NCBI GenBank assembly: GCA_048886685.1
Contig: JBHLKM010000008.1
Coordinates: 107,897 to 171,896 of the forward strand
Direction of reading: 5' to 3'
Source: Candidatus Hodarchaeota archaeon
GTDB lineage: Archaea; Asgardarchaeota; Lokiarchaeia; Sigyniarchaeales; SOKP01
DNA: 64,000 bases
The position numbers and the translations under genes are program-made. Each line of letters opens with the position of its first letter. Position 1 is the stretch's first letter. Shown here in pieces: positions 35,921 through 51,550 of the stretch. Below the pieces are notes generated by a model that saw nothing but the letters and a program-made list of their open reading frames with translations, ran no database searches and had not been told where the DNA came from.

Positions 35921-37270
35921 CTATAGCCGAATATAGCGTTCTCTTTCCCAATCACTCACAACAACTCTATAAGCATCAAATTCCTCTAATTTAGCATAGT
36001 AGTAATTCTTAAATGCTGTTTCACCAAATATTTCTTTCATTGATTCAGATTCTTTAAACTCCAATAACGCTTCATGTAAACTACCGGGTAGAGATACAAT
36101 ACCTTCCTTTTCCATTTCTTTACTGGAAAGATGGTAAACATTTCTATCTGTTGGTTCAGATATTTCAATGTCATCTGATAATACACCTTCCAAACCTGTA
36201 GTTAAAAGCACGGCAAACTGAAGATATGGATTTCCAGACGGATCTGGGCATCGAATTTCACATCGAGCGGCATTAGGTCTACCGTGAAAATCAGGTACCC
36301 TAATCAGAGGTGACCTGTTACGAAATCCCCAAGCAAGATATACAGGGGCCTCATAACCTGGGACGAGTCTTTTATATGAATTTGGCCAGCTACTTAGAAC
36401 AGCACACATGGCTCTTGAATGTTTTAATTGACCTGCTATCCATTTCTTCATTGTTAGTGATATATTATCTTGATCGTTTTCATCATAAAATGCATTATTA
36501 CCATTTTTCCATAATGACTGATGTACATGCATACCTGAACCATTAATTCCATGAAAGGGTTTTGCCATGAAAGTTCCAGTAAGATTGTGGTTTGCTGCAA
36601 CCGTTTTGACTATTGTTTTAATAGTTATTGTATTGTCAGCGGTATTCACAGCCTCATCATAACGAAAATCAATCTCATGTTGACCATAAGCAACTTCATG
36701 ATGAATACACTCAACATTAATTCCCATTGCATCACTATATTCTGCAATTGTATATCTTATCATCTCATTTTTATCATATGGATCATAATCGAAATATCCT
36801 CTCATATCTGATGGTTTAAATTCTGCTTTAGTATCTGGAGTTAGTATAAAAAATTCCATTTCAGGTGCACAAAAATATTTATAACCATGTTCTTTTGCCT
36901 TATTTGTAGCACGCTGTAAAATATAACGAGGATCCCCCTCATATCGTTCACCATCAGGTTTATAAATATCACAAATAACTCGAGCAACCTTGTTTTCTTT
37001 TCGCCATGGTAAGAGGTAAAAAGTGCTCGGATCAGGAAGTGCAACTTTATCAGATTCCTCAATAGCTCCATATCCTGTTATCGAACTTCCATCAAAATTT
37101 TCTCCTACTTCAAAAATATCTTCAATTCTCTTAGAATTAATCTCAAATGATTTAATAATTCCATGAATATCTGTAAATTGAAGATAGATAAATTTAATCC
37201 CTTCCTCCTTAATCCTCTCTATCACAGCATCACACATTTCTTTCCTTTTTGGATTATCTTTTTCAATCAT
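35921..37270 (-). CDS. glnA: Glutamine synthetase type I
   Basis: LQFTDIHG, FDGSSI, HHEVA.GQHEI, NGSGMHVHQS, YKRLVPGYEAP, NRSPLIRVP, EIRCPDP. Confidence 0.97.
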   Translation of the reverse strand: MIEKDNPKRKEMCDAVIERIKEEGIKFIYLQFTDIHGIIKSFEINSKRIEDIFEVGENFDGSSITGYGAIEESDKVALPDPSTFYLLPWRKENKVARVICDIYKPDGERYEGDPRYILQRATNKAKEHGYKYFCAPEMEFFILTPDTKAEFKPSDMRGYFDYDPYDKNEMIRYTIAEYSDAMGINVECIHHEVAYGQHEIDFRYDEAVNTADNTITIKTIVKTVAANHNLTGTFMAKPFHGINGSGMHVHQSLWKNGNNAFYDENDQDNISLTMKKWIAGQLKHSRAMCAVLSSWPNSYKRLVPGYEAPVYLAWGFRNRSPLIRVPDFHGRPNAARCEIRCPDPSGNPYLQFAVLLTTGLEGVLSDDIEISEPTDRNVYHLSSKEMEKEGIVSLPGSLHEALLEFKESESMKEIFGETAFKNYYYAKLEEFDAYRVVVSDWERERYIRL

Positions 37271-37296: not shown

Positions 37297-37668
37297 TTAT
37301 TCATAAATTAGAGATGAATCTTTTTTACTCCTCATAAACGTGGAAAAATCTTTTATGGTTAATGCTTTTCGAATGTTTTCTGAATTCAAATTTAACTTAT
37401 TATTAGGTTCACAATTCCAGTCGTAGGATGCTCTTTCGTGAATTGCAAAATTATTGGGTTCTGGAGTTAAATCTTTAATTAGTTCACAAGTTTTACTTGT
37501 TTTAAACGCAATTGTATCAATACCTAAAAAAATTGAACAATTCCATTTATTATTGTCTCGACCTCCAAAATCTGTTAATCCACTAGATATAGAATAATCT
37601 TCACACTCCTGACAGATTTTACTATCATAACGGTACTTTTTTCCACAAACAGGACATTTTATTTCCAT
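37297..37668 (-). CDS. Zn-ribbon protein ending LIYE (paralog A), first gene of the glnA operon
   Basis: CPVCGKKYRYDSKICQECE..KWNC; 26-nt gap to glnA. Confidence 0.75.
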   Translation of the reverse strand: MEIKCPVCGKKYRYDSKICQECEDYSISSGLTDFGGRDNNKWNCSIFLGIDTIAFKTSKTCELIKDLTPEPNNFAIHERASYDWNCEPNNKLNLNSENIRKALTIKDFSTFMRSKKDSSLIYE

Positions 37669-37764
37669 TTTTTCATATTCTCTCTCATTTAATTTTTGAT
37701 TTAATTAATTTTTCAAAAAGAAATATACGTATATTGCCAAATTAAATCAATTTTTATTTTTATA

Positions 37765-37780
37765 TGGGATTTAAACCCCA
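37765..37780 (-). promoter_or_regulatory. GGG-N8-CCCA box upstream of the glnA operon
   Basis: TGGGGTTTAAATCCCA on the minus strand, 30 nt downstream of TATA-like TTTATATATA (37811-37820). Confidence 0.7.
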
Positions 37781-38017
37781 TTTTTTATCCTTTAACAATA
37801 AATGTGATCGTATATATAAAAATCTTTTGATCAATTATCTCAAATATTCATTTCTTGATAAAAATGTTAACAATATATTTAATAATCATTGAATAAAGTG
37901 ACCGATTGATTATTTAGAAATTTTTTGTCGTTATAGAGAATGATCATTTGAATATTTTTTATTGCTTTATTTAATCAAATGCATACTTTTATAATTATTT
38001 CATAACTATCTATTAAT

Positions 38018-38521
38018 ATGGTTGTTAATTCTAAGATAGTTAACTTATCTGATTTGGATAAGAAGATCCTAACTAAACTAGACGAAGATGGAAGATTATC
38101 ATTTCGTCATCTTGCTAAAGACTTAGAAGTAGGTTCACCTGTAACCATTAAAAATCATGTTGAGAATTTAGAAGAAAAGGGTGTTATTAAAAATTATGGA
38201 GTACAGATTGATTATGAAAAACTAGGGTATGATATTATCGCTCTTATTGAATTAACGGTTTCAAAAGGTAAAATGCTTGAAGTTGAAAATAAATTAGCCC
38301 AGAACCCAAACATTTTTGCTGTGTATGATATTACAGGAACATATGATGCTCTTATTCTTGCGAGATTTAAAACTAGGGCGGAGCTAAGCGAAATGATAAA
38401 AGAAGAAATACATACTTCTCCCTATGTTGAACGAACTAATACTCATATAGTTTTAAATATTATTAAAGAGGAATTTTCTTTTAAAAATTTGATAGAAAAA
38501 GAAGGAATAGAACTTCAATAG
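38018..38521 (+). CDS. Lrp/AsnC family transcriptional regulator
   Basis: LSDLDKKIL..DGRLS HTH, LEEKGVIK, LGYDI, ITGTYD. Confidence 0.93.
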   Translation: MVVNSKIVNLSDLDKKILTKLDEDGRLSFRHLAKDLEVGSPVTIKNHVENLEEKGVIKNYGVQIDYEKLGYDIIALIELTVSKGKMLEVENKLAQNPNIFAVYDITGTYDALILARFKTRAELSEMIKEEIHTSPYVERTNTHIVLNIIKEEFSFKNLIEKEGIELQ

Positions 38522-38540
38522 CAATCTAAAGCGAGGATAC

Positions 38541-38696
38541 TGAAAACGTTCAACAAAAATCATTAATTATTAATACTAGGATTGAATCCAAAGATAAATG
38601 TTCACTGAAATAAATCTTTATGTTTAAAATGTTCACAAAATCGAATATTCTGTAGACTATTTACTATTTTTAATATGAAAAAATATAAAATGTTCA
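38541..38696 (+). promoter_or_regulatory. Array of AAAYGTTCA repeats, candidate Lrp binding sites
   Basis: GTTCA cores at 38548, 38600, 38631, 38692. Confidence 0.45.
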
Positions 38697-38880
38697 ATAA
38701 CCTTACACAAAACTTAAATAGAAGAAGATTTTCACTGAATAATTTTCATAAGAAACGTATAATATTAATAGATCTTTCATTTATATTTAACTATTCTTGT
38801 CGAAAGGTTTAGAAAAATTATGAAAAGACATAATTTCTTTCAATAAATTATAAATAGAAGTTCTCCTTTAGTAATAAATA

Positions 38881-38896
38881 AGGGAACTTGTTCCCA
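38881..38896 (+). promoter_or_regulatory. GGG-N8-CCCA box upstream of the wHTH/Zn-ribbon/hdrBC/glt operon
   Basis: AGGGAACTTGTTCCCA, about 25 nt after TATA-like TTATAAATA (38848-38856). Confidence 0.7.
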
Positions 38897-38965
38897 CAAA
38901 TAAAAAAATAAGACATAAAAGAGGTAAAAAAAAATAAAAAAATTTTTTGAAAGGAGGTTTTAAAA

Positions 38966-39181
38966 ATAACAGTTCAAGAGTATTTTCGAACATGGGAAGA
39001 AATTTGCTTGGAAAAACTAAAAGAAATAGGAAGATGCTCAGCAGCCGAATGGGCTAGGGCAATGGGATATGGAGATAATCGTAATGGTGTGACAACAGTA
39101 ATAAAACGAATAAAAAAAACTATGCCTGAAAGGTTAACGGTTTATTATAACACCAGGCCACGATTATATGAAGCTGTATAA
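38966..39181 (+). CDS. Small winged-HTH protein, 71 aa, ATA start; absent from the ORF track
   Basis: (M)TVQEYFRTWEEICLEKLKEIGRCSAAEWARAMGYGDNRNGVTTVIKRIKKTMPERLTVYYNTRPRLYEAV*; GGAGGT SD 7 nt upstream; in-frame TGA at 38948. Confidence 0.7.
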   Translation: MTVQEYFRTWEEICLEKLKEIGRCSAAEWARAMGYGDNRNGVTTVIKRIKKTMPERLTVYYNTRPRLYEAV

Positions 39182-39211
39182 ACAGAATATTAAAGTAGAG
39201 TGTGAATTAAG

Positions 39212-39724
39212 ATGCCATTAAAATGCCAAATTTGTGGAAAAGAATATTTATATGATGGAAAGATATGCCATAGCTGCGAAGAGAGTGCCATTACAAGTGG
39301 TTTGACATCTCGAGAGGGATATGAACATAAGTGGAGATGTGATAATTTTATTGAACCGAATGGTTTAGTATTTGGAAGCAATTTAAATAAGAGAAGAGAG
39401 TTTACATTAAAATTAATTGAATGTCCTGAATGTGGAGAAAAGTATTCCTATGGCAGAAAAATCTGTCATGTCTGTGAAGGTAATTTATTGCCGTTTGGAA
39501 CGTTATTCGATTCAGATCGCAAGGCACGTAGGTGGAATTGTGAAACAGTATTAGCTTGTATAGAGATATTGTCATCTAATTTAGATACTACTGAGACCAT
39601 TGTAAAAGATGTACCCCATTTAGAAAAACTCGAGAAAACTGATTATAAATGGAATCAAGTTTCGACTATAAAATATAATAATGAACAAATAGATGGGAAG
39701 AACAAGCTTCTGATCTATGAATAA
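39212..39724 (+). CDS. Double Zn-ribbon protein ending LIYE (paralog B)
   Basis: Two CxxCGxxYxYxxKICxxCE..WxC repeats. Confidence 0.75.
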   Translation: MPLKCQICGKEYLYDGKICHSCEESAITSGLTSREGYEHKWRCDNFIEPNGLVFGSNLNKRREFTLKLIECPECGEKYSYGRKICHVCEGNLLPFGTLFDSDRKARRWNCETVLACIEILSSNLDTTETIVKDVPHLEKLEKTDYKWNQVSTIKYNNEQIDGKNKLLIYE

Positions 39725-39920
39725 ATATCATTTTTTAAATTCAAGATTATTAAAAAAAAGTAAAAATAATGAATATAACTCAGGTTAAAATTATGAGCAT
39801 TGTAGTAGTAAAGAAGGTAGCTTATACATCTAATTAAAATTAAGTTATTTCTTTATGGTTTTACTTAATATTTTCATTTTATTTTAAAGTAACTTAATGT
39901 AATTAAAGAGGTTAAAAAAA

Positions 39921-41261
39921 ATTCAACAAGAGATAATGTTATTTCCAGGATGCGTGATAGTAAATAGATTTCCCTTTATTGAAGTCTCAATAAGGAAAGT
40001 ATTTGATCATCTGGGAATATCTTTTACTGAAAATCCCAAATTTTCTTGTTGTCCAGATCCAAATGGCATTAAAAATTCTAATAAGTTATTATATTCTATT
40101 ACCGCAGCTCGCAATATTGCTCTTGCTGAGTTAGAAAATAAAGCAATATTAACACCCTGTAACGGATGCTTTAGCACATTAAAAAAAGTCAAAAGTGAAA
40201 TCGATACAGATCACCATTTCAAAAGGAAAATCAATAGTTATTTAGATAAGATTGATATCAAGGTTGAGGGAAAGACTGAAGTATTCCATATGGTTGATTT
40301 CATTTTCAAATTTAAGAGAGACACTATCAGGGATAATTTAATATATCCACTGACGGGATTAAGAGTTGCTGTGCATTATGGATGTCATTTTCTTAGACCA
40401 AGCAATAAAGTTCAGATAGATGATCCCTTGGAACCAGCAATCTTTGATGACTTAATTAAGGATTTAGGTGCTGAAAGTATAGATTATAATCTTAAAATGG
40501 ATTGTTGTGGGGGAATTCTCGAGAGAGCTGGAAATTCAAGTTTATCATTAGAAATTATTAAAGCAAAATTAGAAAGCATGAAAGAAAAAGATGTGGATTG
40601 CATTGTTGTTTGCTGTCCTCAATGTTATATGCAATTTGATCATTTACAACAGGAAATGAAAAAATTTGACTTTAATTATGACATTCCTGTGCTATATTAT
40701 TCAGAATTATTATCTCTCGCATTAGGGCTAGATCTCCGAGATATTATTAAAAAGCATCATAGAACCCAAGTTGATTCACTTTTTGAAAAGATCGATCTCA
40801 TCCAAGAGAAAAATAAGGAGATAAGAAAATTCTTCGATCTTACCTTTTTACTTAAATGCTATTCATGTGGGGCATGCGATGACGATTGTATTATCTCAAA
40901 GATGACCGAATTTAGTCCGAAGGCACTCATAGGCAATATTATCAAAGGAAAAATTGATCAGGTAATCTCAGATCCTTCTATTTGGATGTGTCTCGACTGT
41001 TATTTGTGTTATGAGCTTTGTCCGATGGGAATTGGCCTAATTGAAATTTTTACTATATTACGAAATTTAGCAAAAGAAAGAGGTTTTATCACTAAAGGAT
41101 TTGAAAAGGAATTTAACGCTTTTTACAAAAAAGGAATAGTAGGAATGCCTTCGAAGGCAGCACGATCTAGAGTTGGATTACCATCACATATACCGGATGT
41201 TGGAGATTTGAAAGATTTGTTTAATGTAGTAGAAAGAGAGAATACAAAACTAGAGGAATAA
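39921..41261 (+). CDS. Heterodisulfide reductase HdrB-HdrC fusion (probable ATT start; ORF track start ATG 39936)
   Basis: Two CCG domains (FPGC..SCCPDP..PCNGC; HYGCH..CCGG..CCPQC) followed by CYSCGACDDDC and CLDCYLCYELCP. Confidence 0.88.
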   Translation: MQQEIMLFPGCVIVNRFPFIEVSIRKVFDHLGISFTENPKFSCCPDPNGIKNSNKLLYSITAARNIALAELENKAILTPCNGCFSTLKKVKSEIDTDHHFKRKINSYLDKIDIKVEGKTEVFHMVDFIFKFKRDTIRDNLIYPLTGLRVAVHYGCHFLRPSNKVQIDDPLEPAIFDDLIKDLGAESIDYNLKMDCCGGILERAGNSSLSLEIIKAKLESMKEKDVDCIVVCCPQCYMQFDHLQQEMKKFDFNYDIPVLYYSELLSLALGLDLRDIIKKHHRTQVDSLFEKIDLIQEKNKEIRKFFDLTFLLKCYSCGACDDDCIISKMTEFSPKALIGNIIKGKIDQVISDPSIWMCLDCYLCYELCPMGIGLIEIFTILRNLAKERGFITKGFEKEFNAFYKKGIVGMPSKAARSRVGLPSHIPDVGDLKDLFNVVERENTKLEE

Positions 41262-41264
41262 TTT

Positions 41265-42455
41265 ATGAGATGGGAAAATTATACCTCATTACCAGAGCAG
41301 TATAGGAATCAGAGAGTATTCGATGGATGTGGGATTTCTGGATTTATAAATGTTGATGGGAGTAGGGTTAGAGGGGATAAAGTCATTGATATGCTATGTA
41401 TTTTAAAGGAGAGGGAAAATGGATTAGGAGCTGGGTTTGCGGCTTATGGTATTTATCCAAAATATAAAAATTATTATGCATTTCATTTTCTCTTTGATAA
41501 TATTTCTGCTAAAACAAAAGTTTTAGATTATTTAGATAATAAAGGTACAATTATCGCATCTGAACCAATTCCAACTAATACTCCTTTAAATGTTGATAAT
41601 CCACCGATTATTTGGAGAGCTTTCTTCGATCCTAATAAAAGTGGAAGTCTGGAACCAGACGAAAAAGTCGTACAGATTGTAATGGAAATAAATGCGAACA
41701 TAGAAAATGCTTTTGTTATGTCTTCCGGTAAAAACATGGGTGTGTTTAAAGGAAATGGGTGGTCACATGAAATTGCCAATTTTTACAAAATTTCAGATTA
41801 TGACGCTTTTATGTGGTTAGCGCATTCTAGGTTTCCTACCAATACTCCTGGATGGTGGGGAGGTGCTCACCCCTTTAATTTATTAAATTGTTCAGTTGTT
41901 CATAATGGAGAAATAACATCCTATGGAACAAATAGAAGGTACTTAGACTCGTTTGGATATAAATGCACTCTCTTCACCGACACAGAAGTCATTGCATATT
42001 TATTTGATTTATTATGTCGTAAGCATCAAATACCCTTATCTATCGCCACAATTGCTCTAGCACCACCATTATTTGGTGAGATCGAAAAGTTAAGCAGGAG
42101 AGAGCAACTAGTGCTTAAAAGTATAAGAGCAACTTATCGGAGCGCGATGTTAAATGGACCATTTTCAATTGTGGTTGGTTTTTCAAATCCAATTCCTACA
42201 ATGATCGGATTATCTGATAGAAAAAAATTAAGACCCCTTGTAATTGGAATTTCAGATGATGAAAACACTATATATATGAGTAGTGAGGAAGCATCTTTCA
42301 AACGATTGACGTTATCTAATAGAAATTTCTCAATGAAAGAAATATGGCATCCCAAAAGTGGGTCAGCAACGATTGTCATGCTTGGTAAAGGATTGATAAC
42401 AAATGGCCTTGAAACACCAATAAAAAATTTAAAATTAACAATGATGGAGGCTTAA
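41265..42455 (+). CDS. Glutamate synthase amidotransferase subunit (archaeal GltB1, Ntn type)
   Basis: DGCG (Ntn Cys), ERENGLGAG, HSRFPTNT, AHPF, HNGEI, TDTEV. Confidence 0.9.
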   Translation: MRWENYTSLPEQYRNQRVFDGCGISGFINVDGSRVRGDKVIDMLCILKERENGLGAGFAAYGIYPKYKNYYAFHFLFDNISAKTKVLDYLDNKGTIIASEPIPTNTPLNVDNPPIIWRAFFDPNKSGSLEPDEKVVQIVMEINANIENAFVMSSGKNMGVFKGNGWSHEIANFYKISDYDAFMWLAHSRFPTNTPGWWGGAHPFNLLNCSVVHNGEITSYGTNRRYLDSFGYKCTLFTDTEVIAYLFDLLCRKHQIPLSIATIALAPPLFGEIEKLSRREQLVLKSIRATYRSAMLNGPFSIVVGFSNPIPTMIGLSDRKKLRPLVIGISDDENTIYMSSEEASFKRLTLSNRNFSMKEIWHPKSGSATIVMLGKGLITNGLETPIKNLKLTMMEA

Positions 42456-42458
42456 ATA

Positions 42459-43979
42459 ATGGCAATCGCGCATGAAATTATTAATTATTTTAAAGTTGAT
42501 ATAAATAGAGAAGATTGTAAAAAATGTAAACGATGCATTAATCACTGTTCATTTGGAGTTTTGTCTTTTAATGGGGAACAAATAATTGCTGAGGATCATA
42601 AATGTGTTGCCTGTCAACGGTGTGCAGTTATGTGTCCTGGAAATGCGATAAGAATTGTTCAAAATGAGTCATTTTTGCCACCTCATGGACATTATACAAG
42701 AAAAATTCGAAATATAATCTGGGCTCAATCTGGGAATGGAGGTGTTCTACTATCCGCAACTGGTAATGATAGACCAATCCGTTCAATATTCGATGATTTA
42801 CTTCTAGATGCGTGCCAAGTTACTAATCCCTCTATCGATCCCTTAAGAGAAACAATTGAAACTAAGATAATTTTTGGGAGAAAACCAAAGAAATTAACTT
42901 TCATCTCTCATCCGGATGATTTAGAAAAAATTTCTTTAAAAACCAACTTGATGCCGAATTTTGAGATTGATATGCCAATCATGGTAGGTCATATGTCTTT
43001 GGGTTCAATTAGTTATAATGCATGTCAGGCAATTTACCAAGCAGCAACTGAATTAAATATTGTAGCAGGATCAGGTGAAGGGGGTTTACATCCAGATTTC
43101 TATGAATATGCTCCGAATATAATTACAGAAGTTGCTTCTGGAAGATTTGGAGTGGATATTAATTATCTTAGCAATGCTGCGGCGTTAGAAATAAAGATCG
43201 GGCAAGGAGCTAAACCAGGGCATGGTGGTCACTTACCAGGTGAAAAAGTTAGCAGTTTAATCTCGCAAACCCGAATGATTCCAAAAGGAAGCGATGCGTT
43301 ATCACCTTATCCCCATCATGATATTTATTCAATAGAAGATTTAGCTCAATTGATAGCTGCCTTAAAAGAAGCAACAAGATATAAAGTTCCTGTAGGAGTA
43401 AAAATAGCGGCAGTTCATAATTCTGCTCCGATTGCAGTTGGAATTGTTAGAGGAAGTGCTGATTTTCTTACTTTAGACGGATTCCGTGGTGGAACTGGTG
43501 CTGCTCCAAGAATTATTCGGGATCATGCAGGAATCCCCATTGAATTAGCCATAGCTGCCGTTGATGAAAGATTAAGACAAGAAAATTTACGTGAAGAAGT
43601 AACTTTAATAGCTGGCGGTTCAATTCGATATTCTGCTGATTTAATTAAGGCTATTGCTCTAGGCGCTGATGTAGCAATGTGTTGTATGCCAGTTTTAATT
43701 TCAATGGGATGTAGAGTTTGTCAGCAATGCTTCAGGGGACTATGTCCCTGGGGAATTGCAACTCAACAAGAATATTTGGTAAAACGATTAGATGTTGATG
43801 TTGCGAAAAATAGAATAATTAATTTATTTCATTCTTGGAATGAAGAATTAAAGGAAGTTTTAGGAGCGATGGGAATTGATTCTATAGAATCGCTCCGCTC
43901 AAACCGAGACCGATTAAGATATATAGGTCCAAATCCGCGTATTGCGGACATTTTAGGAGTAAAACATGCAGGTGAATAA
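42459..43979 (+). CDS. Glutamate synthase FMN subunit with N-terminal 2x[4Fe-4S] (archaeal GltB2)
   Basis: VASGRFG, KIGQGAKPGHGGHLP, HHDIYSIEDL, GGTGAAP, CRVCQQC..CPWGIATQ. Confidence 0.92.
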   Translation: MAIAHEIINYFKVDINREDCKKCKRCINHCSFGVLSFNGEQIIAEDHKCVACQRCAVMCPGNAIRIVQNESFLPPHGHYTRKIRNIIWAQSGNGGVLLSATGNDRPIRSIFDDLLLDACQVTNPSIDPLRETIETKIIFGRKPKKLTFISHPDDLEKISLKTNLMPNFEIDMPIMVGHMSLGSISYNACQAIYQAATELNIVAGSGEGGLHPDFYEYAPNIITEVASGRFGVDINYLSNAAALEIKIGQGAKPGHGGHLPGEKVSSLISQTRMIPKGSDALSPYPHHDIYSIEDLAQLIAALKEATRYKVPVGVKIAAVHNSAPIAVGIVRGSADFLTLDGFRGGTGAAPRIIRDHAGIPIELAIAAVDERLRQENLREEVTLIAGGSIRYSADLIKAIALGADVAMCCMPVLISMGCRVCQQCFRGLCPWGIATQQEYLVKRLDVDVAKNRIINLFHSWNEELKEVLGAMGIDSIESLRSNRDRLRYIGPNPRIADILGVKHAGE

Positions 43980-44817
43980 AATTACTATAGTTAATGATAT
44001 TGAAACAAAAGATTTTGGAATTGGAATTGAAGAACCATTAGAGATAGATGCTGCTCCAAATGGAGATCCTCTCGATTATAGAGAATTAAATTCCATGATT
44101 CATAATGCTGTTAATAATAATTGTAAGAAAATTGTGTTAAACAATGTTTGTGGGCAAAGATTTATAGGTGCTGCTTTACAAGGAGATGTAGAAATAAGTA
44201 TTAATGGGGTTCCTGGTAATGATTTAGGGATTTTTATGGATGGTCCAAGAATTAGTGTTTTTGGGAATTGTGAGGACCAATCTGGTAATACCATGAATCA
44301 AGGAACAATGATAATTGATGGGGATGGAGGAGATGTTATAGGCTTATCTTCAAGAGGCGGGAAGATTTATATCAAAGGTGATGTTGGATATAGAGTTGGT
44401 ATTCACATGAAAGAATATGAAGACCATTTTCCAATATTAATAGTCGGTGGCACAGCTAAAGACTTTTTAGGTGAATATATGGCTGGTGGTAAAATTATTG
44501 TACTTGGTTTAAAAATTTCCTCAAATAGTAGTATTTCTGAGAGTCCACAGTCAATTTGTGGTACGGAATTAGGAACAGGGATTCATAGGGGTGCTATTTA
44601 TCTTCGAACAGAAGAAAATGTAGAGGATAGGTTAGGTGTTGGAGCAAAAGTTTTCAATCTTTCAAAAGATGAACAAGAAGAAATTGATACTTACGTAGAA
44701 GATTTCTGTAAAACATTTAATGTTCCCCTAAGTGCTGTTGATAATAAACCTTTTAAAGTTATTAAACCAATTTCAAAAAGACCTTTTGGTGGAAATTATT
44801 GTAGCCAATTAATCTAA
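43966..44817 (+). CDS. Glutamate synthase GXGXG subunit (archaeal GltB3)
   Basis: GQRFIG, GVPGNDLG, GYRVGIHMK, DFLGEYMAGG; overlaps gltB2 by 14 nt. Confidence 0.9.
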   Translation: MQVNKITIVNDIETKDFGIGIEEPLEIDAAPNGDPLDYRELNSMIHNAVNNNCKKIVLNNVCGQRFIGAALQGDVEISINGVPGNDLGIFMDGPRISVFGNCEDQSGNTMNQGTMIIDGDGGDVIGLSSRGGKIYIKGDVGYRVGIHMKEYEDHFPILIVGGTAKDFLGEYMAGGKIIVLGLKISSNSSISESPQSICGTELGTGIHRGAIYLRTEENVEDRLGVGAKVFNLSKDEQEEIDTYVEDFCKTFNVPLSAVDNKPFKVIKPISKRPFGGNYCSQLI

Positions 44818-45040
44818 TTTTTTCCCCTTTTTTTGAATTTGTTCATTTATAAACATTAAGCTTTAATATATGAATAACAACCCTTAAACATTGTTCAATT
44901 ATATTCATTTTTTCTAAAAAATATTGAAAAATTCTTATATTAATTTTTAAGATTATCGGATTTTTTAATTAAATATTAATAAATTGTTTAATTTCGATCC
45001 TAATATTTATTAATAATAAAACCTAATTTATTATAAAAAA

Positions 45041-45056
45041 TGGGAATACAAACCCA
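45041..45056 (+). promoter_or_regulatory. GGG-N8-CCCA box upstream of the second FMN subunit
   Basis: TGGGAATACAAACCCA, 25 nt after TATA-like TTTATTAATA (45006-45015). Confidence 0.65.
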
Positions 45057-45092
45057 CTATTTTTTTGAATACATTTGAAAAGTAGATTATTT

Positions 45093-46742
45093 ATGACAAA
45101 ATTTTCAATGGATACTCATCAATCAAGCATGATAGGGTCTAGAACCAGAGTTGAGGATTCTTGTGAATCTGGTTTGTGCCCAATTTGTGTAGCAGATTGC
45201 CCTGTTTTCTGCGAAGTTTCAAAATCTGCTTTGCGCGGTCGCGAAGTGTTATATCCACGTAGAGAATTTTTTGGTAATTCTACAGCTGGTTCACCAAAAG
45301 ATTTTGGGTTCTCTTATAGTGACTTTCAAATTCAATTTGAATGTCGAGGAGCTCAGGGAATTGAAGAAGATGAAGATAAAGTAATATTTCCTAATGTTAA
45401 TATTAAAACTAAGTGGGGAAATATTGAACAAAAAAATCCATTTGTAATTGCTGGTTTAGGAAGCACTTACGTTGCAAAACGTAACTGGGATGGTTTAGCA
45501 ATAGGAGCTGCATTATCAGGAGTAAGTACTACTGTAGGAGAGAATGTAGTTGGAATGGATCCTTATGCTAAATTCGCAAACCATGCCGTATATCCTAAAG
45601 TAGTTGATACACAGGATATGAAATATCGGGTTGAAAAATACAGAGAATTTTGGGATGGGAAGCATGGAGATATTATTGTACAAAAAAATGTAGAGGATAC
45701 AAGATTAGGTGTTTTTGATTATGTTATGTCTAATTTAGAAGTAAACTCACTTGAAATAAAATTTGGTCAAGGTGCAAAAGCAATTGGAGGCGAAGTCAGG
45801 TTAGAATCATTGGAGCGTGCCCAATTACTGCAGGAAAGAGGGTACCTTGTCTTTCCTGATCCTTCAGATCCAGTTATTATTGAACAGTGGAAAGAAGGAT
45901 TAATTCCAGACTTTGAAAGACATAGTCGGGTAGGACTATCTTCTACTGAGGATGTTTTAGAAGAAATTGATCAAGTACGCTCAAGCGGCGCAAAAAATAT
46001 TTTCATAAAAACTGGAGCATACAGACCAGCAGCAACAGCTTGGATAATAAGATTAGGTATTGAAGGAAAAGTAGATGGAATGACTTTTGATGGTGCTGGT
46101 GGAGGTACTGGTATGAGTCCAGTAAGTATGATGAATGAAGGATCAATTCCAACAGCCTATTTAGAAGCACTAGTAGTTGGATGTCTTGATATGATTAAAA
46201 AGAAAAATCCGAATGTATCTATACCCTCTATTGCAATAGCAGGTGGTATTGCTAATGAAACACAGATTTTTAAAGCACTTGCTATGGGTGCTCCTTATGT
46301 AAATTGCATTGCGATGGCAAGAGCCCCAATTACCGCAGCTATGAAAGCAAAATTCATTGGAGAGGTTATTAATAAAAAGGAAGCCACACCTGCAATGCTT
46401 CGCAATTTGGGTTTCTATAAGGACAAAGATCCTAAAAGTTTGACATTAAGTGAAGCTTTTGTTGAGTATGATAATTTGAATAGAATTTATAACGGAAATC
46501 GTATTCCTCCTTCGGCGATTGGAGTTTACACTTATTTTACTAGCAAATTAGGTATAGGACTCCAACAACTATTAGCTGGAGTTCGAAAATTTAAGGCGAA
46601 TTTAATATGTCGAAATGATATTGCTTATATTTCTCAAAGAGCTAAAGAAGTATGTAAAAAATGGAATCTTGGAATTAAATCTCAAGAATCACTCGATTAT
46701 GAGTTAGTAAAAAATGAGATTTATTCTGGGAATTATGATTAA
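45093..46742 (+). CDS. FMN-binding glutamate synthase family protein (stand-alone GltB2-like) with N-terminal Cys cluster
   Basis: CESGLCPICVADCPVFCE, KFGQGAKAIGGE, DGAGGGTGMSP, AGG, KALAMGA; ATG 45093 preferred over TTG 45075. Confidence 0.85.
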   Translation: MTKFSMDTHQSSMIGSRTRVEDSCESGLCPICVADCPVFCEVSKSALRGREVLYPRREFFGNSTAGSPKDFGFSYSDFQIQFECRGAQGIEEDEDKVIFPNVNIKTKWGNIEQKNPFVIAGLGSTYVAKRNWDGLAIGAALSGVSTTVGENVVGMDPYAKFANHAVYPKVVDTQDMKYRVEKYREFWDGKHGDIIVQKNVEDTRLGVFDYVMSNLEVNSLEIKFGQGAKAIGGEVRLESLERAQLLQERGYLVFPDPSDPVIIEQWKEGLIPDFERHSRVGLSSTEDVLEEIDQVRSSGAKNIFIKTGAYRPAATAWIIRLGIEGKVDGMTFDGAGGGTGMSPVSMMNEGSIPTAYLEALVVGCLDMIKKKNPNVSIPSIAIAGGIANETQIFKALAMGAPYVNCIAMARAPITAAMKAKFIGEVINKKEATPAMLRNLGFYKDKDPKSLTLSEAFVEYDNLNRIYNGNRIPPSAIGVYTYFTSKLGIGLQQLLAGVRKFKANLICRNDIAYISQRAKEVCKKWNLGIKSQESLDYELVKNEIYSGNYD

Positions 46743-46795
46743 ATAAATTTTCTTCTTTTTACTAAAAAAAAAATAGAAATAGCAAAGTCTAAAGA

Positions 46796-48586
46796 TTAGT
46801 TCATAAGACTTTCTAATTGATTAACAAAATCTTCATACTGTTTTATCCCGAGTACCCAAAAGTCTTTCTTTGTTACATCTAATCCTACAATCATTCCTAA
46901 TTCTACCGGAGAAATGCTGCCACCTGCAGCGAGAAGCTTCTTAAATTTGGGAACAAAGTCTTTACCCTCTTTTTTATAAGCTTGATAAAGTGCATAAACA
47001 AAAAGTTGAGCATAGACATAGGGGTAATTATAGAAGCGAAAATTTGGGATGAAGTAATGTTGCTTCATAGTCCATTCCCAATCCATCTCCTCAAACCATT
47101 CTACAGAATCTCCGTATATTTTATCTCTACCAGCGCACCAATATTTCGATATAGTCTTACCATCTAGATTTTCACCTTTTTCTATCGCTTTATATAAATC
47201 ATGTTCAAACCAATATCTCGCACTTACTTGAAATGCAGCTTGTCCCGCATCGTCAAGTACATAGGCTAGTATTGCCATTTTTTCTTCTTTTGATTCGGCT
47301 ACTTCAAGAAGTAAATCGGTTAATAAAAGTTCTCCAAATATTGAAGCAGTCTCTGCTACACTATACCCTGGATGAATATTAAAGTATGTTTGTGCTTGGA
47401 TGGCTAAATAATCATGGATTGCATGACCAAGCTCATGAATAAGTGTAAAAATTTCATTCATTTCTCCAGTATACGTCATAAGAATAAATGCAGATTTTCC
47501 TTTATACCAAGAAGCGCAATTAGCTCCATTTCTTTTACCGTTTCTAGGACTTGCGTCAATATGATTTCGATTGAACATATCATTAAGATACTCCGCAAAT
47601 TCCTTATCAAATTTTTCATTTGCTTGAATTACGAGTTCTTTAGCTTTTTCCCATAAATATTTTTTATGTGGGGCAATCGGAAGTGGAGCTCGAACATCAG
47701 CACAATTTAACTTGGGAAAACCTAGGATCTTTGCTTTAAGATTCATATATCTACGATAAACATCAACACCTTCTTCTATTGCCCTCATCAAATTATCAAT
47801 TATTTCTTGAGTTGTATCATTTACAATAAGGCTATCATGCATTGGGTTATCATATTTTCTTCTCTTCGAATTATTCACCCAATTTCCGCATATACTTCTC
47901 AAAGCCGTAGAAAAGATATACTCATCTTCTCCTAGCAAACCATAAATAGACTTATTTGCTGAAATTCTGGTATTCCTATCTGGGTGGTTGAGTAAAGCAT
48001 TAGCCTCCCCATAAGATAGTTCTTTTTTCTCACCCTCAAATTCTACTACAATTTTTCTTGTATTCAACCATTTAGACTGTAGGGTGCTCCATGCCCTTAC
48101 CCCATATTGATCTTTTTCAAGAATTATTTGTTCTTCTATTTCAGAAAGATCATGAGGAAATTTTCTTTTAATTATCTCTAGAAGATGTTTATAATTAGAT
48201 AGAATCGGTTCATTGATTATGTCAGCATTGTTATAAACAAATTTGGCAATATCTAAGTCCAAAAAGGCTAGATCTTTAGCTATTTTTGTTGTAAAATCAT
48301 CAATACGATTCTTTAAAGCCTCACTTTCTGGAATAGTCATATTAGCACTGAATAATCTATCCTTATAAAGATCTAATTCACCAAGTTCAGCTCCAAATTC
48401 TTCTTGTATTTTAAATAGTTCTAACAATTTCTTAGGTGTAAATTCAGGAGAATTAATTTTCCCTTTATAATTATTAACAAGTTCAGTAGCCTTACTAGAG
48501 AGGGTATCCATCCTTTCAGTGATTTTAGGGTCATCATGACCAACGAAAATTTCTGTTAAATCCCACGCGATTTCTTTTTCAGTCAT
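46796..48586 (-). CDS. pepF: Oligoendopeptidase F (peptidase M3B)
   Basis: AWDLTEIF, HELGHAIH, AETASIFGE, FYNYPY. Confidence 0.92.
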   Translation of the reverse strand: MTEKEIAWDLTEIFVGHDDPKITERMDTLSSKATELVNNYKGKINSPEFTPKKLLELFKIQEEFGAELGELDLYKDRLFSANMTIPESEALKNRIDDFTTKIAKDLAFLDLDIAKFVYNNADIINEPILSNYKHLLEIIKRKFPHDLSEIEEQIILEKDQYGVRAWSTLQSKWLNTRKIVVEFEGEKKELSYGEANALLNHPDRNTRISANKSIYGLLGEDEYIFSTALRSICGNWVNNSKRRKYDNPMHDSLIVNDTTQEIIDNLMRAIEEGVDVYRRYMNLKAKILGFPKLNCADVRAPLPIAPHKKYLWEKAKELVIQANEKFDKEFAEYLNDMFNRNHIDASPRNGKRNGANCASWYKGKSAFILMTYTGEMNEIFTLIHELGHAIHDYLAIQAQTYFNIHPGYSVAETASIFGELLLTDLLLEVAESKEEKMAILAYVLDDAGQAAFQVSARYWFEHDLYKAIEKGENLDGKTISKYWCAGRDKIYGDSVEWFEEMDWEWTMKQHYFIPNFRFYNYPYVYAQLFVYALYQAYKKEGKDFVPKFKKLLAAGGSISPVELGMIVGLDVTKKDFWVLGIKQYEDFVNQLESLMN

Positions 48587-48744
48587 AATAATAAATACCT
48601 TAAAAATTGGAAAATTTAAAAACCTTTACTACAGATTTAATTTAATACTTAAAGTCGGGGATGGAAAAAAGAAATAGAAATTATGTCTATGAAATGATCT
48701 AGGATTATTTAATTATTTTATATTAAAATCAGTTAAAGTTAGAT

Positions 48745-50304
48745 TTATTCATATTCTATCGTTCCAGGGGGTTTATTGGTGATATCATATACGACTCTAT
48801 TTATTCCCCTAACCTCATTAATAATTCTTGTTCCTATTTTCTCTAATAAATCCCAGTTTAACTTAGCAAAATTGGCGGTCATGACATCAAGAGATTCAAC
48901 AGCTCTAATCGCACAAATATATTCATATGTGCGGTAATCTCCCATGACACCAACAGTTTTTAGTGGTAAAAAAACACAAAAAGCTTGCCATAAAGCTTCA
49001 TATACTCCTCCTTTTTTAATTTCTTCAATTAAAATCTCGTCGGCTTCTCTTAAGATATTAAGCTTTTCTTTATTTATAGGACCTACAATTCTTACAGCCA
49101 AACCAGGTCCTGGAAAGGGATGTCTTGAGATTATTTCCTCTGGGATTCCGAGTTTTATTCCAATTTTTCTAACCTCGTCTTTATACAAGTTTTTTAATGG
49201 CTCGATCACTTCTAGCATCATATTTTCTGGTAATGCTACATTATGATGTGATTTAATTCTTGCTGACGCCTTACTTGTTGCGCTTGTTTCCACTCGATCG
49301 GGATAAATTGTTCCTTGGGCAAGGTATTTTATATCTGGATTTTCTTTTTCTAGTTCAATAGTTTTATTTTCAAATACCTCAATAAATGTATGACTAATTA
49401 TCTTACGCTTTTCTTCTGGATCCCCAATATTTTCAAGTCTATTTAAGAATAGTTCTTCAGCATCTACATAATGAAAATTTTTAAATTTCAATTTATCCTT
49501 GAATGTCTTTTGGACTTCCATTTCTTCATTCTTCCTCAATAAACCATTATTTACAAACACGCTATGTAAGCGATCACCGATAGCTCTATGAATTAAAACA
49601 GCTGTTACAGAAGAATCTACTCCCCCACTTAACCCTAAAATCACTTTATTATTTGGGCCTATTTCGCTTTTAATTTCTTCAATAATACTTTCGATTAAAC
49701 CTTCAACTTTCCATTCTTTTTTGCATTGAGCTATTTTAAATACAAAATTCTCTAAAATCTTATTACCTTTAGGAGTATTAACTACTTCGGGATGAAATTG
49801 AACACCAAATAATAATTGTTCTTCATTTGAATAAGAAGCTACGGGGCAGGTTTCTGTTTTAGCTAAAGTTTTAAAACCCTTAGGTAAGGAAGTAACTTGA
49901 TCACCATGAGACATCCATACTATTTCTTCTCTATTTAATGAGTCGAAAAGAAGGTTTTTCTTTACAATAATAATATTTGTTTTACCATATTCCTTTGATT
50001 CTTTGGATTCCACCTTTCCTTTATGTTTATGTATAATTAAATGATGTCCATAGCAGATTCCTAAAATAGGGATTTTTTTTTCAGAAGTAAATTGAAATAA
50101 TTCATCACTTATAGTTGGACTATCTTTTTCATAGATACTATTCGGTCCTCCAGAAAATATTATAGCTTTAGGCATGATGCTTCTAATTTTGTCTAGACCA
50201 ACATCATAGGGAAAAATCTCTGAATATACTCCAAAATCCCGAATCCTCCTGGTGATTAAATGTGCATATTGCCCACCAAAATCCAAAACAATAACACAAT
50301 CCAT
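48745..50304 (-). CDS. guaA: GMP synthase, full-length fused form
   Basis: LDFGGQY, GICYG, QFHPEV, SGGVDS, IKSHHNV, RHPFPGPGLAVR, KPPGTIEYE. Confidence 0.97.
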   Translation of the reverse strand: MDCVIVLDFGGQYAHLITRRIRDFGVYSEIFPYDVGLDKIRSIMPKAIIFSGGPNSIYEKDSPTISDELFQFTSEKKIPILGICYGHHLIIHKHKGKVESKESKEYGKTNIIIVKKNLLFDSLNREEIVWMSHGDQVTSLPKGFKTLAKTETCPVASYSNEEQLLFGVQFHPEVVNTPKGNKILENFVFKIAQCKKEWKVEGLIESIIEEIKSEIGPNNKVILGLSGGVDSSVTAVLIHRAIGDRLHSVFVNNGLLRKNEEMEVQKTFKDKLKFKNFHYVDAEELFLNRLENIGDPEEKRKIISHTFIEVFENKTIELEKENPDIKYLAQGTIYPDRVETSATSKASARIKSHHNVALPENMMLEVIEPLKNLYKDEVRKIGIKLGIPEEIISRHPFPGPGLAVRIVGPINKEKLNILREADEILIEEIKKGGVYEALWQAFCVFLPLKTVGVMGDYRTYEYICAIRAVESLDVMTANFAKLNWDLLEKIGTRIINEVRGINRVVYDITNKPPGTIEYE

Positions 50305-50533
50305 TATTGAGAAACTCTTAACTTAGAATTGAAATATATCTTGAATTAATATTTTTTATGTTGAAATCGTTTCTTAATTATTTTTTAATAAGTTAAATAA
50401 TCAAATTAATTTTTCCAATTAGTCGTAGATTTTTTCTAACTTAAAATTATTTATTAAATAGATATTCAAAAAACCATTATAGCAAAAGAAATGATTGTAA
50501 ATTAGATTTTCTTAAGAAATAATTATTAAAATA

Positions 50534-50549
50534 GGGGAAAAAATTCCCA
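50534..50549 (+). promoter_or_regulatory. GGG-N8-CCCA box upstream of the nfn-like operon
   Basis: GGGGAAAAAATTCCCA. Confidence 0.65.
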
Positions 50550-50665
50550 TAAACAGAGTGATTTACGATATATTTTTTTTAGGTCGAATTATTCTTCAAT
50601 TAGGAGGAACAAAATTATTTTCGAATTGAATCTTCAAATAAATCTTGAATATAATAAGAATCGCA

Positions 50666-51550
50666 ATGCCTTTTAAAATTTTAAAAAAAATCCAACTTGG
50701 AAAAAGTGGTACATTATTTGAAATTGATATTTACGCCCCGCTAATAGCTAAGAAAGCATTTGCAGGTAACTTTATACTTCTTAGAATTAATGAAACAGGG
50801 GAGCGAATTCCCTTAACAATTGCTGATTATGATACTGATAACGGAACATTAACTATCGTTTTTCAAGTAATTGGAAAAAGTACAAAACTTCTTTCTACTC
50901 TGAATGTAGAAGATGAAATTTTAGATGTTGTTGGACCATTAGGTAATAGAATTCATACTGAAAAATATGAAAATTCTGTTGTTATTGTTGGGGGTGGTGT
51001 TGGTATAGCAGAATGTTATCCCCAAGCAAAGGAATTGAAAAACATAGGAAATAACATTATATCGATAATAGGAGCAAGGACGAAAGATTTAATATTTTGG
51101 AAAGATAAAATGGCTGCTGTAACTGATACATTAATTATATGCACTGATGATGGAAGTGAAGGAATAGAGGGATTTGTAACAGATCCACTTAAAAAGCTAC
51201 TCAAAACTGAGAAAATAAGTGTTGTGATAGCGATTGGACCATTAATCATGATGAAGAACGTTTCTCTTTTAACAAATGGATTGAATAATTTGCCTAAAGT
51301 AAGAACCTATGTATCTTTAAATACAATAATGATTGATGGTACTGGAATGTGTGGGGGATGTCGATTCTCAACTCATGATGGTAACATATATTTTGCATGT
51401 GTTGAAGGACCTGATGTAGATGGGCATATAGTTGATTTTGATAATCTTTTAAATCGTTCTAAAAGATTTATTAAACAAGAACAGGAATCTTTAGAAAATT
51501 TTGAACATGAATGTAAAGCTCTAGAAAAAACAGGGGGAAATGCATCTTAG
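50666..51550 (+). CDS. nfnA: NfnA/SudB-type FAD-[2Fe-2S] subunit (ferredoxin:NADP+ oxidoreductase small subunit)
   Basis: GERIPLTI, GPLG, GGGVG, TDDGS, DGTGMCGGC..CVEGP; ATG 50666 preferred over TTG 50645. Confidence 0.88.
   Translation: MPFKILKKIQLGKSGTLFEIDIYAPLIAKKAFAGNFILLRINETGERIPLTIADYDTDNGTLTIVFQVIGKSTKLLSTLNVEDEILDVVGPLGNRIHTEKYENSVVIVGGGVGIAECYPQAKELKNIGNNIISIIGARTKDLIFWKDKMAAVTDTLIICTDDGSEGIEGFVTDPLKKLLKTEKISVVIAIGPLIMMKNVSLLTNGLNNLPKVRTYVSLNTIMIDGTGMCGGCRFSTHDGNIYFACVEGPDVDGHIVDFDNLLNRSKRFIKQEQESLENFEHECKALEKTGGNAS

Follow-up and report, generated by a model that had tools for sequence, protein, structure and literature searches.

A conserved palindromic motif predicted to act as the operator of a small nitrogen and 2-oxoacid regulon in a Loki-type archaeon

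The DNA considered here is a stretch of 64,000 nucleotides (nt), referred to as the window, which covers positions 107897 to 171896 of contig C8 in the genome of an uncultured archaeon of the Promethearchaeota (Asgard, Loki-type). Four intergenic regions of the window contain a GGG-N8-CCC box, located ahead of genes linked to glutamine synthetase (GS) and glutamate synthase (GOGAT). The box is the core of a palindrome of 16–20 base pairs (bp), which recurs elsewhere in the genome ahead of genes of 2-oxoacid metabolism. The observations as a whole are best explained, with good confidence, by a palindromic operator that would control a small GS/GOGAT/2-oxoacid regulon. As judged from sequence, operator and regulon appear to be real and conserved; the motif is new, and the protein that reads it possibly belongs to a new regulator family.

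Definition, enrichment and conservation of the palindrome

The host genome assembly (G000) comprises 4.42 Mb with a GC content of 30.9%, and is 100% complete by markers, with a contamination of 8.4%. Coding sequence accounts for 87% of the genome, and the non-coding set used here amounts to 530 kb with 21% GC, with GC-rich RNA genes masked. In the window, GGG-N8-CCC is matched nine times, where 3.05 ± 1.54 matches are expected, and none of 100 shuffles reaches this number. Five matches (2561, 16676, 20603, 43735 and 50799) lie inside long open reading frames (ORFs). The other four, at 37766, 38882, 45042 and 50535, are intergenic. They correspond to the boxes listed in a preliminary description of this DNA, and they are indeed the only non-coding matches in the window. 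The enrichment also holds for the non-coding DNA of the whole genome, with 13 copies of GGG-N8-CCC compared with 3.6 ± 2.1 expected, and five copies of GGGA-N6-TCCC compared with 0.7 expected. Apart from tRNA T-arms, the non-coding GGG-N8-CCC matches of the genome form one family.

A 20-bp matrix was trained only on sites from other, related genomes and then used on the host genome. Its consensus is A-R-T-GGGAA-N4-TTCCC-A-Y-T. The inner A/T of each half thus belongs to the palindrome, and the spacer, described earlier as non-pairing, is not entirely unpaired. At a matrix score of at least 18, the host genome contains five intergenic sites and no coding site; at a score of at least 14, there are ten intergenic and 11 coding sites. 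When the 530-kb non-coding set is shuffled by dinucleotides 200 times, 0.68 ± 0.83 sites reach the latter score, four at most, compared with the ten observed. The palindrome is present once per promoter. An origin from a mobile element or repeat was judged unlikely, as the sites share only 16–20 bp, although no dedicated repeat search was run.

Site 1 (37763..37782, minus strand; score 16.4) has imperfect halves, GGGG and TCCC on the gene strand. It precedes an operon in which the Zn-ribbon protein gene ZnR123 (37297..37668, minus strand) is followed by the GS gene glnA (35921..37270, minus strand; Pfam Gln-synt_C/N). Site 2 (38879..38898, plus strand) has a score of 21.3 and lies before the gene of a stand-alone winged-helix protein of 71 amino acids (aa; 38966..39181, plus strand). 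The second gene behind site 2 encodes ZnR170 (39212..39724, plus strand), a paralogue of ZnR123 with two Zn-ribbon units and a DZR_2 match. Site 3 (45039..45058, plus strand; score 15.2) lies ahead of the gene for a second GltB-like FMN protein (gltB2; 45093..46742, plus strand), about 35 nt from its ATG (45093). Site 4 (50532..50551, plus strand; score 18.4) is found about 118 nt before the nfnA-like gene. Behind it, an NfnA-like subunit and an FrhB-GltD/NfnB fusion are encoded (50645..54275, plus strand), the conserved protein start being the ATG at 50666.

Outside the window, one site precedes the genes of ATP-citrate lyase A/B (ACL) and isocitrate dehydrogenase (icd). Another lies before a POR-gamma/TPP 2-oxoacid:ferredoxin oxidoreductase and an ADP-forming acyl-CoA synthetase (ior-acs). 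Weaker sites with one mismatch are present before two acyl-CoA dehydrogenase/thiolase-like loci. The predicted regulon therefore extends beyond nitrogen assimilation. The nitrogen regulon proposed previously stands insofar as GS and GOGAT-linked genes are included, but is too narrow, since ACL/icd, ior-acs and the acyl-CoA dehydrogenases would belong to it as well.

At the orthologous promoters of the 71-aa gene, ACL, nfn and ior, the motif is kept in most of the same-genus genomes compared, and the spacer drifts. The 71-aa promoter carries the palindrome in all 20 same-genus genomes with upstream DNA, 70–100 nt before the gene, and its four central bases vary freely. Among species representatives, 44 of 65 71-aa loci carry the site, compared with one of 65 control regions; the 21 loci without it are mostly more diverged copies of the family. 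For ACL, the site is present in 12/13 same-genus genomes, at −93 ± a few nt, and in 4/4 genomes of the sister genera g14 and g20. The nfn promoter has it in 12/14 same-genus genomes, at −93 to −113, and the ior promoter in 3/3 same-genus genomes and in 3/4 genomes of the sister family. Three of seven same-genus gltB2 orthologues have a site of their own. In the other four, the gene directly follows the 71-aa gene and is thus located behind site 2. At glnA, retention of the palindrome largely goes along with retention of the Zn-ribbon gene; in genomes lacking this gene, the palindrome has decayed to a half site. A GGG-N7-CCC variant, with a spacer one base shorter, occurs at the same place before the Zn-ribbon gene in the glnA promoters of two genomes (G019 and G012; loci L038 and L041).

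Promoter geometry and predicted mode of control

The position of the palindrome relative to the promoter differs between targets. In the 71-aa promoters, the distance from the end of a strongly conserved TATA box to the first G of the site is 25 nt in the host, where the box is located at 38847–38856, and 31–33 nt in most relatives. At glnA, a TATA-like box (37811–37822, minus strand) ends 31 nt upstream of site 1 on the gene strand. The archaeal start site is assumed to lie about 22–25 nt after the TATA box. On this assumption, the sites at the 71-aa and glnA promoters would be placed at about +2 to +25, a repressor-like position. A further conserved block, (ACAGAAAT)GTTTAGA, is found in most relatives at a variable distance of about 20–60 nt upstream of the 71-aa TATA box (loci L012–L026; 38806–38816 in the host). 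This block could be a second regulatory site.

The arrangement is reversed at three other targets. At ACL, a conserved A-rich/TTTAT block begins about 21 nt after the site, and the same site-to-TATA layout is found in the sister family. At nfn, a conserved TATA-like block begins 12–24 nt after the site (50570–50582 in the window), so that the TATA box, previously placed upstream of the site, is located downstream of it here. At ior, a 45-nt conserved block, located 10–55 nt after the site (L079–L081), is near identical in three genomes, in which IorB is only 66–78% identical. This block might represent a promoter with its leader, or a different element. For these three targets, the centre of the site would lie near −55 to −60, in an activator-like position. 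As judged from the conserved TATA-like blocks, the same motif is thus located upstream of the BRE/TATA at some promoters and downstream of it at others. The earlier notion of a repressor operator fits the 71-aa and glnA promoters, where the site follows the TATA box, but not ACL, nfn and ior, where the site precedes it.

In the proposed mechanism, the palindrome would be read by a dimeric helix-turn-helix (HTH) factor, each half-site being contacted by one recognition helix and both helices lying on the same DNA face. Its regulon would comprise the ZnR-glnA operon, the 71-aa gene with ZnR170, the second gltB-like gene, the Nfn/GltD-like electron module, ACL-icd and ior-acs, and with weaker sites the acyl-CoA dehydrogenases. 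From the position of the sites, the factor is predicted to repress where the site follows the TATA box, namely at the 71-aa operon, ZnR-glnA and probably gltB2. Activation is predicted for sites placed about 20 nt ahead of the TATA box, as at ACL-icd, nfn and ior-acs. As a result, ammonium assimilation would be set against amino-acid and 2-oxoacid catabolism. In this scheme, the binding to DNA, the direction of control and the signal sensed are inferred, not observed.

Several points weigh against the proposed operator and regulon. The glnA promoter is the weakest case, as the site is kept in only about 5–6 of 19 same-genus genomes. Two further sites of the host genome add little: the site on contig C28 sits within a plausible small ORF and was discounted, and the site on contig C9 is doubtful, with its nearest downstream gene 392 nt off. 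Related genomes are, moreover, non-independent samples. A genome-wide profile of TATA words upstream of start codons gave no usable peak, only a Shine-Dalgarno peak; the promoter geometry is therefore based on conserved blocks, and the TATA assignments in DNA of 21% GC rest on conservation only. Lastly, the link of site 2 to the GOGAT genes is uncertain. The preliminary description assigned this site to an hdr/glt operon, but it directly precedes the 71-aa gene and the Zn-ribbon gene. The genes for an HdrD-like CCG/4Fe-4S protein and a split glutamate synthase (GATase_2, Glu_synthase, GXGXG; 39936..44817, plus strand) follow only after a 211-nt gap (39725–39935). In this gap, an oligo-T run directly follows the ZnR170 stop codon, and the hdrD-like ATG is preceded, at about 45 nt, by a TATA-like box, so the hdrD-like/GOGAT genes may have their own, palindrome-free promoter. 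By read-through, they may also belong to the regulon.

Candidate readers of the palindrome

Two proteins or protein groups come into question as the main reader of the palindrome. An older factor, common to the family of the host (f1) and its sister family (f2) and lost in several f1 genera, is given close to an even chance. The 71-aa protein is regarded as a distinctly less probable reader, and the remaining probability falls to other options. In the simplest reading, the 71-aa and Zn-ribbon genes would be later, lineage-specific members of the regulon, which tie GS and GOGAT to the older factor. This reading is favoured by the sister family, which keeps the motif, some of its targets (ACL, 2-oxoacid oxidoreductase and Zn-ADH) and the site-to-TATA geometry without the 71-aa family. 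Non-coding exact palindromes were counted in four f2 genomes: G038 (5), G036 (3), G053 (2) and G033 (2). The f2 motif is also located at a POR-gamma gene, Zn-ADH and carA, products that were named from N-terminal sequence with no family search. Against an older factor, no candidate gene was identified, and no transcription-factor gene was seen near the f2 sites. Furthermore, loss of the sites in f1 coincides exactly with absence of the 71-aa gene.

The 71-aa protein itself is the second candidate. It is tentatively proposed to bind the palindrome as a dimer, to repress its own operon and to act as a master regulator. The protein has no Pfam match, and sequence searches of its family against PDB and Pfam gave nothing usable. 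Its AlphaFold2 model (pLDDT 86) shows a bare winged helix with the topology H-b-H-H-b-b. The top Foldseek matches of this model are all winged helix-turn-helix (wHTH) DNA binders, namely MarR/BpsR, ArsR/CzrA, PadR/LmrR and AspA, with TM scores of 0.6–0.72. The family is small, with 36 clusters among 1.8 billion representatives. The fold is thus assigned with confidence, and all structural neighbours bind DNA. In addition, the best and most symmetric site is located in the promoter of the 71-aa gene and is conserved there in the proportions given above. This autoregulation signature keeps the protein a serious candidate.

The distribution of the protein gives a mixed picture. Simply counting exact 16-bp palindromes across 120 genomes fails to distinguish genomes with the 71-aa gene from those without it. 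These counts are uninformative, because coding W-E/D...F-P contexts dominate, and only the split between coding and non-coding copies is informative. Within f1, the protein is present in the genera g1, g14, g20 and g21; three of these (g1, g14 and g20) were examined for sites, and all three carry them at the ACL and nfn promoters. The genera g12, g13, g16 and g17 have no 71-aa protein, and none of their eight tested ACL/nfn promoters carries a site. In five f1 genomes without the gene, all nine exact palindromes lie inside ORFs of at least 218 aa; in five f1 genomes with it, eight of 15 are non-coding. The protein and the non-coding sites therefore co-occur within f1, but their distributions disagree in f2. 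There, the motif, its targets and the promoter spacing (ior −82, ACL −74/−78, POR-gamma, Zn-ADH) are kept without the 71-aa protein. Two profiles of the family find nothing in 14 f2 genomes, and a profile search of all ORFs near the f2 sites gave no match either. Moreover, the nested distribution within f1 fits a lineage-specific target equally well. ZnR170, which was not found in five genomes without the 71-aa gene, is distributed in the same way.

As the 71-aa protein has no ligand domain, it is suggested that nitrogen status may be sensed through a partner, for example a Zn-ribbon protein or GS. A more specific version, in which a 71-aa protein of an undescribed family is the master regulator of nitrogen and 2-oxoacid metabolism and works with the Zn-ribbon paralogues encoded at the head of the GS and GOGAT operons, is considered somewhat less probable still. 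In that version, the 71-aa protein would shut its own operon and the GS operon and turn on the ACL, Nfn and 2-oxoacid oxidoreductase genes, and it would sense through a protein partner rather than a ligand pocket. Should the 71-aa protein prove to be the binder, it would define a new family of regulators that sense through a partner; otherwise, an older factor common to both families would still have to be sought.

In its fold, the 71-aa protein resembles small wHTH repressors such as MarR, ArsR and PadR, and a further likeness is the palindrome that follows the TATA box of its promoter. Unlike these repressors, the protein consists of the winged helix alone: it belongs to no Pfam family and has neither a dimerisation nor a ligand domain. 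Moreover, the motif outlives it in f2. Two side observations concern its gene and its possible origin. The start codon is ATA, located 8 nt after an AGGAGG Shine-Dalgarno box, in the host and five relatives (G003, G017, G011, G023 and G016), and ATG in the others. The ATA may be a deliberately weak start codon. A profile built from distant members of the 71-aa family gives weak matches (E 2e-4 to 7e-3) to the HTH of the Lrp encoded next to glnA in several genomes, and the hhalign alignment (E 0.08) is in register. The 71-aa protein may be derived from an AsnC-type DNA-binding domain.

This Lrp/AsnC regulator (38018..38521, plus strand), encoded divergently from glnA, was considered as a reader in its own right, and is a poor candidate. 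In Halobacterium, an Lrp encoded next to glnA controls glnA and korAB (PMC2894021). The divergent lrp-glnA pair is present here in 17/19 same-genus genomes and in three f2 genomes, and the Halobacterium regulon contains glnA and a 2-oxoacid oxidoreductase, as does the one predicted here. The weak, in-register similarity of the 71-aa family to the Lrp HTH also speaks for this protein. However, Lrp does not track the palindrome: its orthologues (57–65% identity) are encoded in G042, G041 and G060, which have no non-coding palindromes. A multi-site pattern is typical of Lrp (PMC2995911), and the palindrome is single, while TGATCA boxes form clusters. The lrp-glnA spacer (37800–37950) contains three to five palindromic TGATCA(T/A) boxes, one of which abuts the glnA TATA box. 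The cluster (loci L030–L053) is kept in same-genus genomes and in f2, with three tandem repeats in G027. These boxes are probably the operator of the adjacent Lrp.

A different kind of reading takes the palindrome as an RNA element, i.e., a 5'-UTR hairpin or terminator-like stem acting on mRNA stability, translation or termination. Transcription of the site is probable at the 71-aa and glnA promoters; the palindrome is able to fold into a stem of 5 bp, and a terminator scan flags two sites. Nevertheless, an RNA element is improbable. In a sample of 58 oriented sites, the four core positions pair as G-C, G-C, G-C and A-T in 56–58 cases, without any other type of pair; 37 of the 58 have A-T as their fifth pair. 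No covariation was found in this sample; the flanks pair no better than chance, and G-U is not above A-C. The predicted hairpins are weak (−4.6 to −7.8 kcal/mol; z −1.1 to −1.8) and within the shuffle range, and Rfam gave no match. At ACL, nfn and probably ior, the site would not be transcribed, since the conserved TATA-like block begins only after it. A terminator was also rejected, as the stems with T-runs are on strands having no upstream gene. Enrichment, phylogenetic footprints and the lack of covariation together bear out the earlier preference for a DNA site, and the palindrome is most likely recognised in a sequence-specific manner by a protein.

The weakest reading, a variant operator of NrpR, a nitrogen repressor responding to 2-oxoglutarate, is effectively refuted, as the protein was not found. 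The NrpR operator, GGAA-N6-TTCC, is a 14-bp site in the promoters of glnA and other nitrogen genes, from which NrpR represses at or after the start site (PMC2723118). The palindrome described here shares its 4-N6-4 layout and glnA as a target, and at two promoters the site follows the TATA box. However, the NrpR domain (PF01995) has no match in the marker-complete host genome, with M. jannaschii and M. acetivorans positive as controls. One base per half also differs: the third base of each half-site is G, not A as in the NrpR operator, in all 58 sites. The exact sequence GGAA-N6-TTCC occurs seven times in intergenic and 110 times in coding DNA of the host genome, with no non-coding enrichment. 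Concerning NrpR-type targets, glnA is present, AmtB (PF00909) and PII (PF00543) were not found in the host genome, and the search did not extend to nif. The majority of the targets are different, carbon and 2-oxoacid genes among them, and some sites lie upstream of the promoter in activator-like positions. The usual nitrogen-sensing set of NrpR, PII and AmtB thus appears to be missing from the host genome. The preliminary description left the choice between an NrpR variant and a new factor; the missing domain and the invariant G argue against the former, and a new factor is the better option.

Comparison with known regulators

GlnR/TnrA of Bacillus and NtcA of cyanobacteria, which are small DNA-binding proteins or global factors, also control GS and GOGAT through palindromes of about 14–17 bp. 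Their protein families are unrelated and their motifs differ, so the resemblance is an analogy only. Control by NtcA extends to icd and depends on position. Sensing by GlnR takes place through GS itself (PMC9249791). For the position logic, TrmBL1 of the Thermococcales offers a likeness. Through one palindromic glycolytic motif, it represses from sites downstream of the TATA box, activates from sites upstream of the BRE/TATA, and switches opposing branches of metabolism (PMC4706686). Here, the motif and the regulon differ, no TrmB-type protein is linked to the sites, and the sign of regulation is predicted from position.

Literature searches on transcription regulation in Asgard archaea or Lokiarchaeota gave no described regulon or cis-element. 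The palindrome is sharply defined, with about ten targets per genome, and is conserved over many species; its host appears to lack the textbook nitrogen-sensing parts. It may offer a route to reading metabolic switching, between assimilation and amino-acid fermentation, in metatranscriptomes of uncultured Promethearchaeota.

Contig C46 of the host assembly (4.7 kb; locus L003) contains another copy of the 71-aa gene, which has diverged (56% identity) and has its own palindrome. The same contig also carries lrp (74% identity) and glnA (88% identity), and represents either a co-binned related strain or a paralogous locus.

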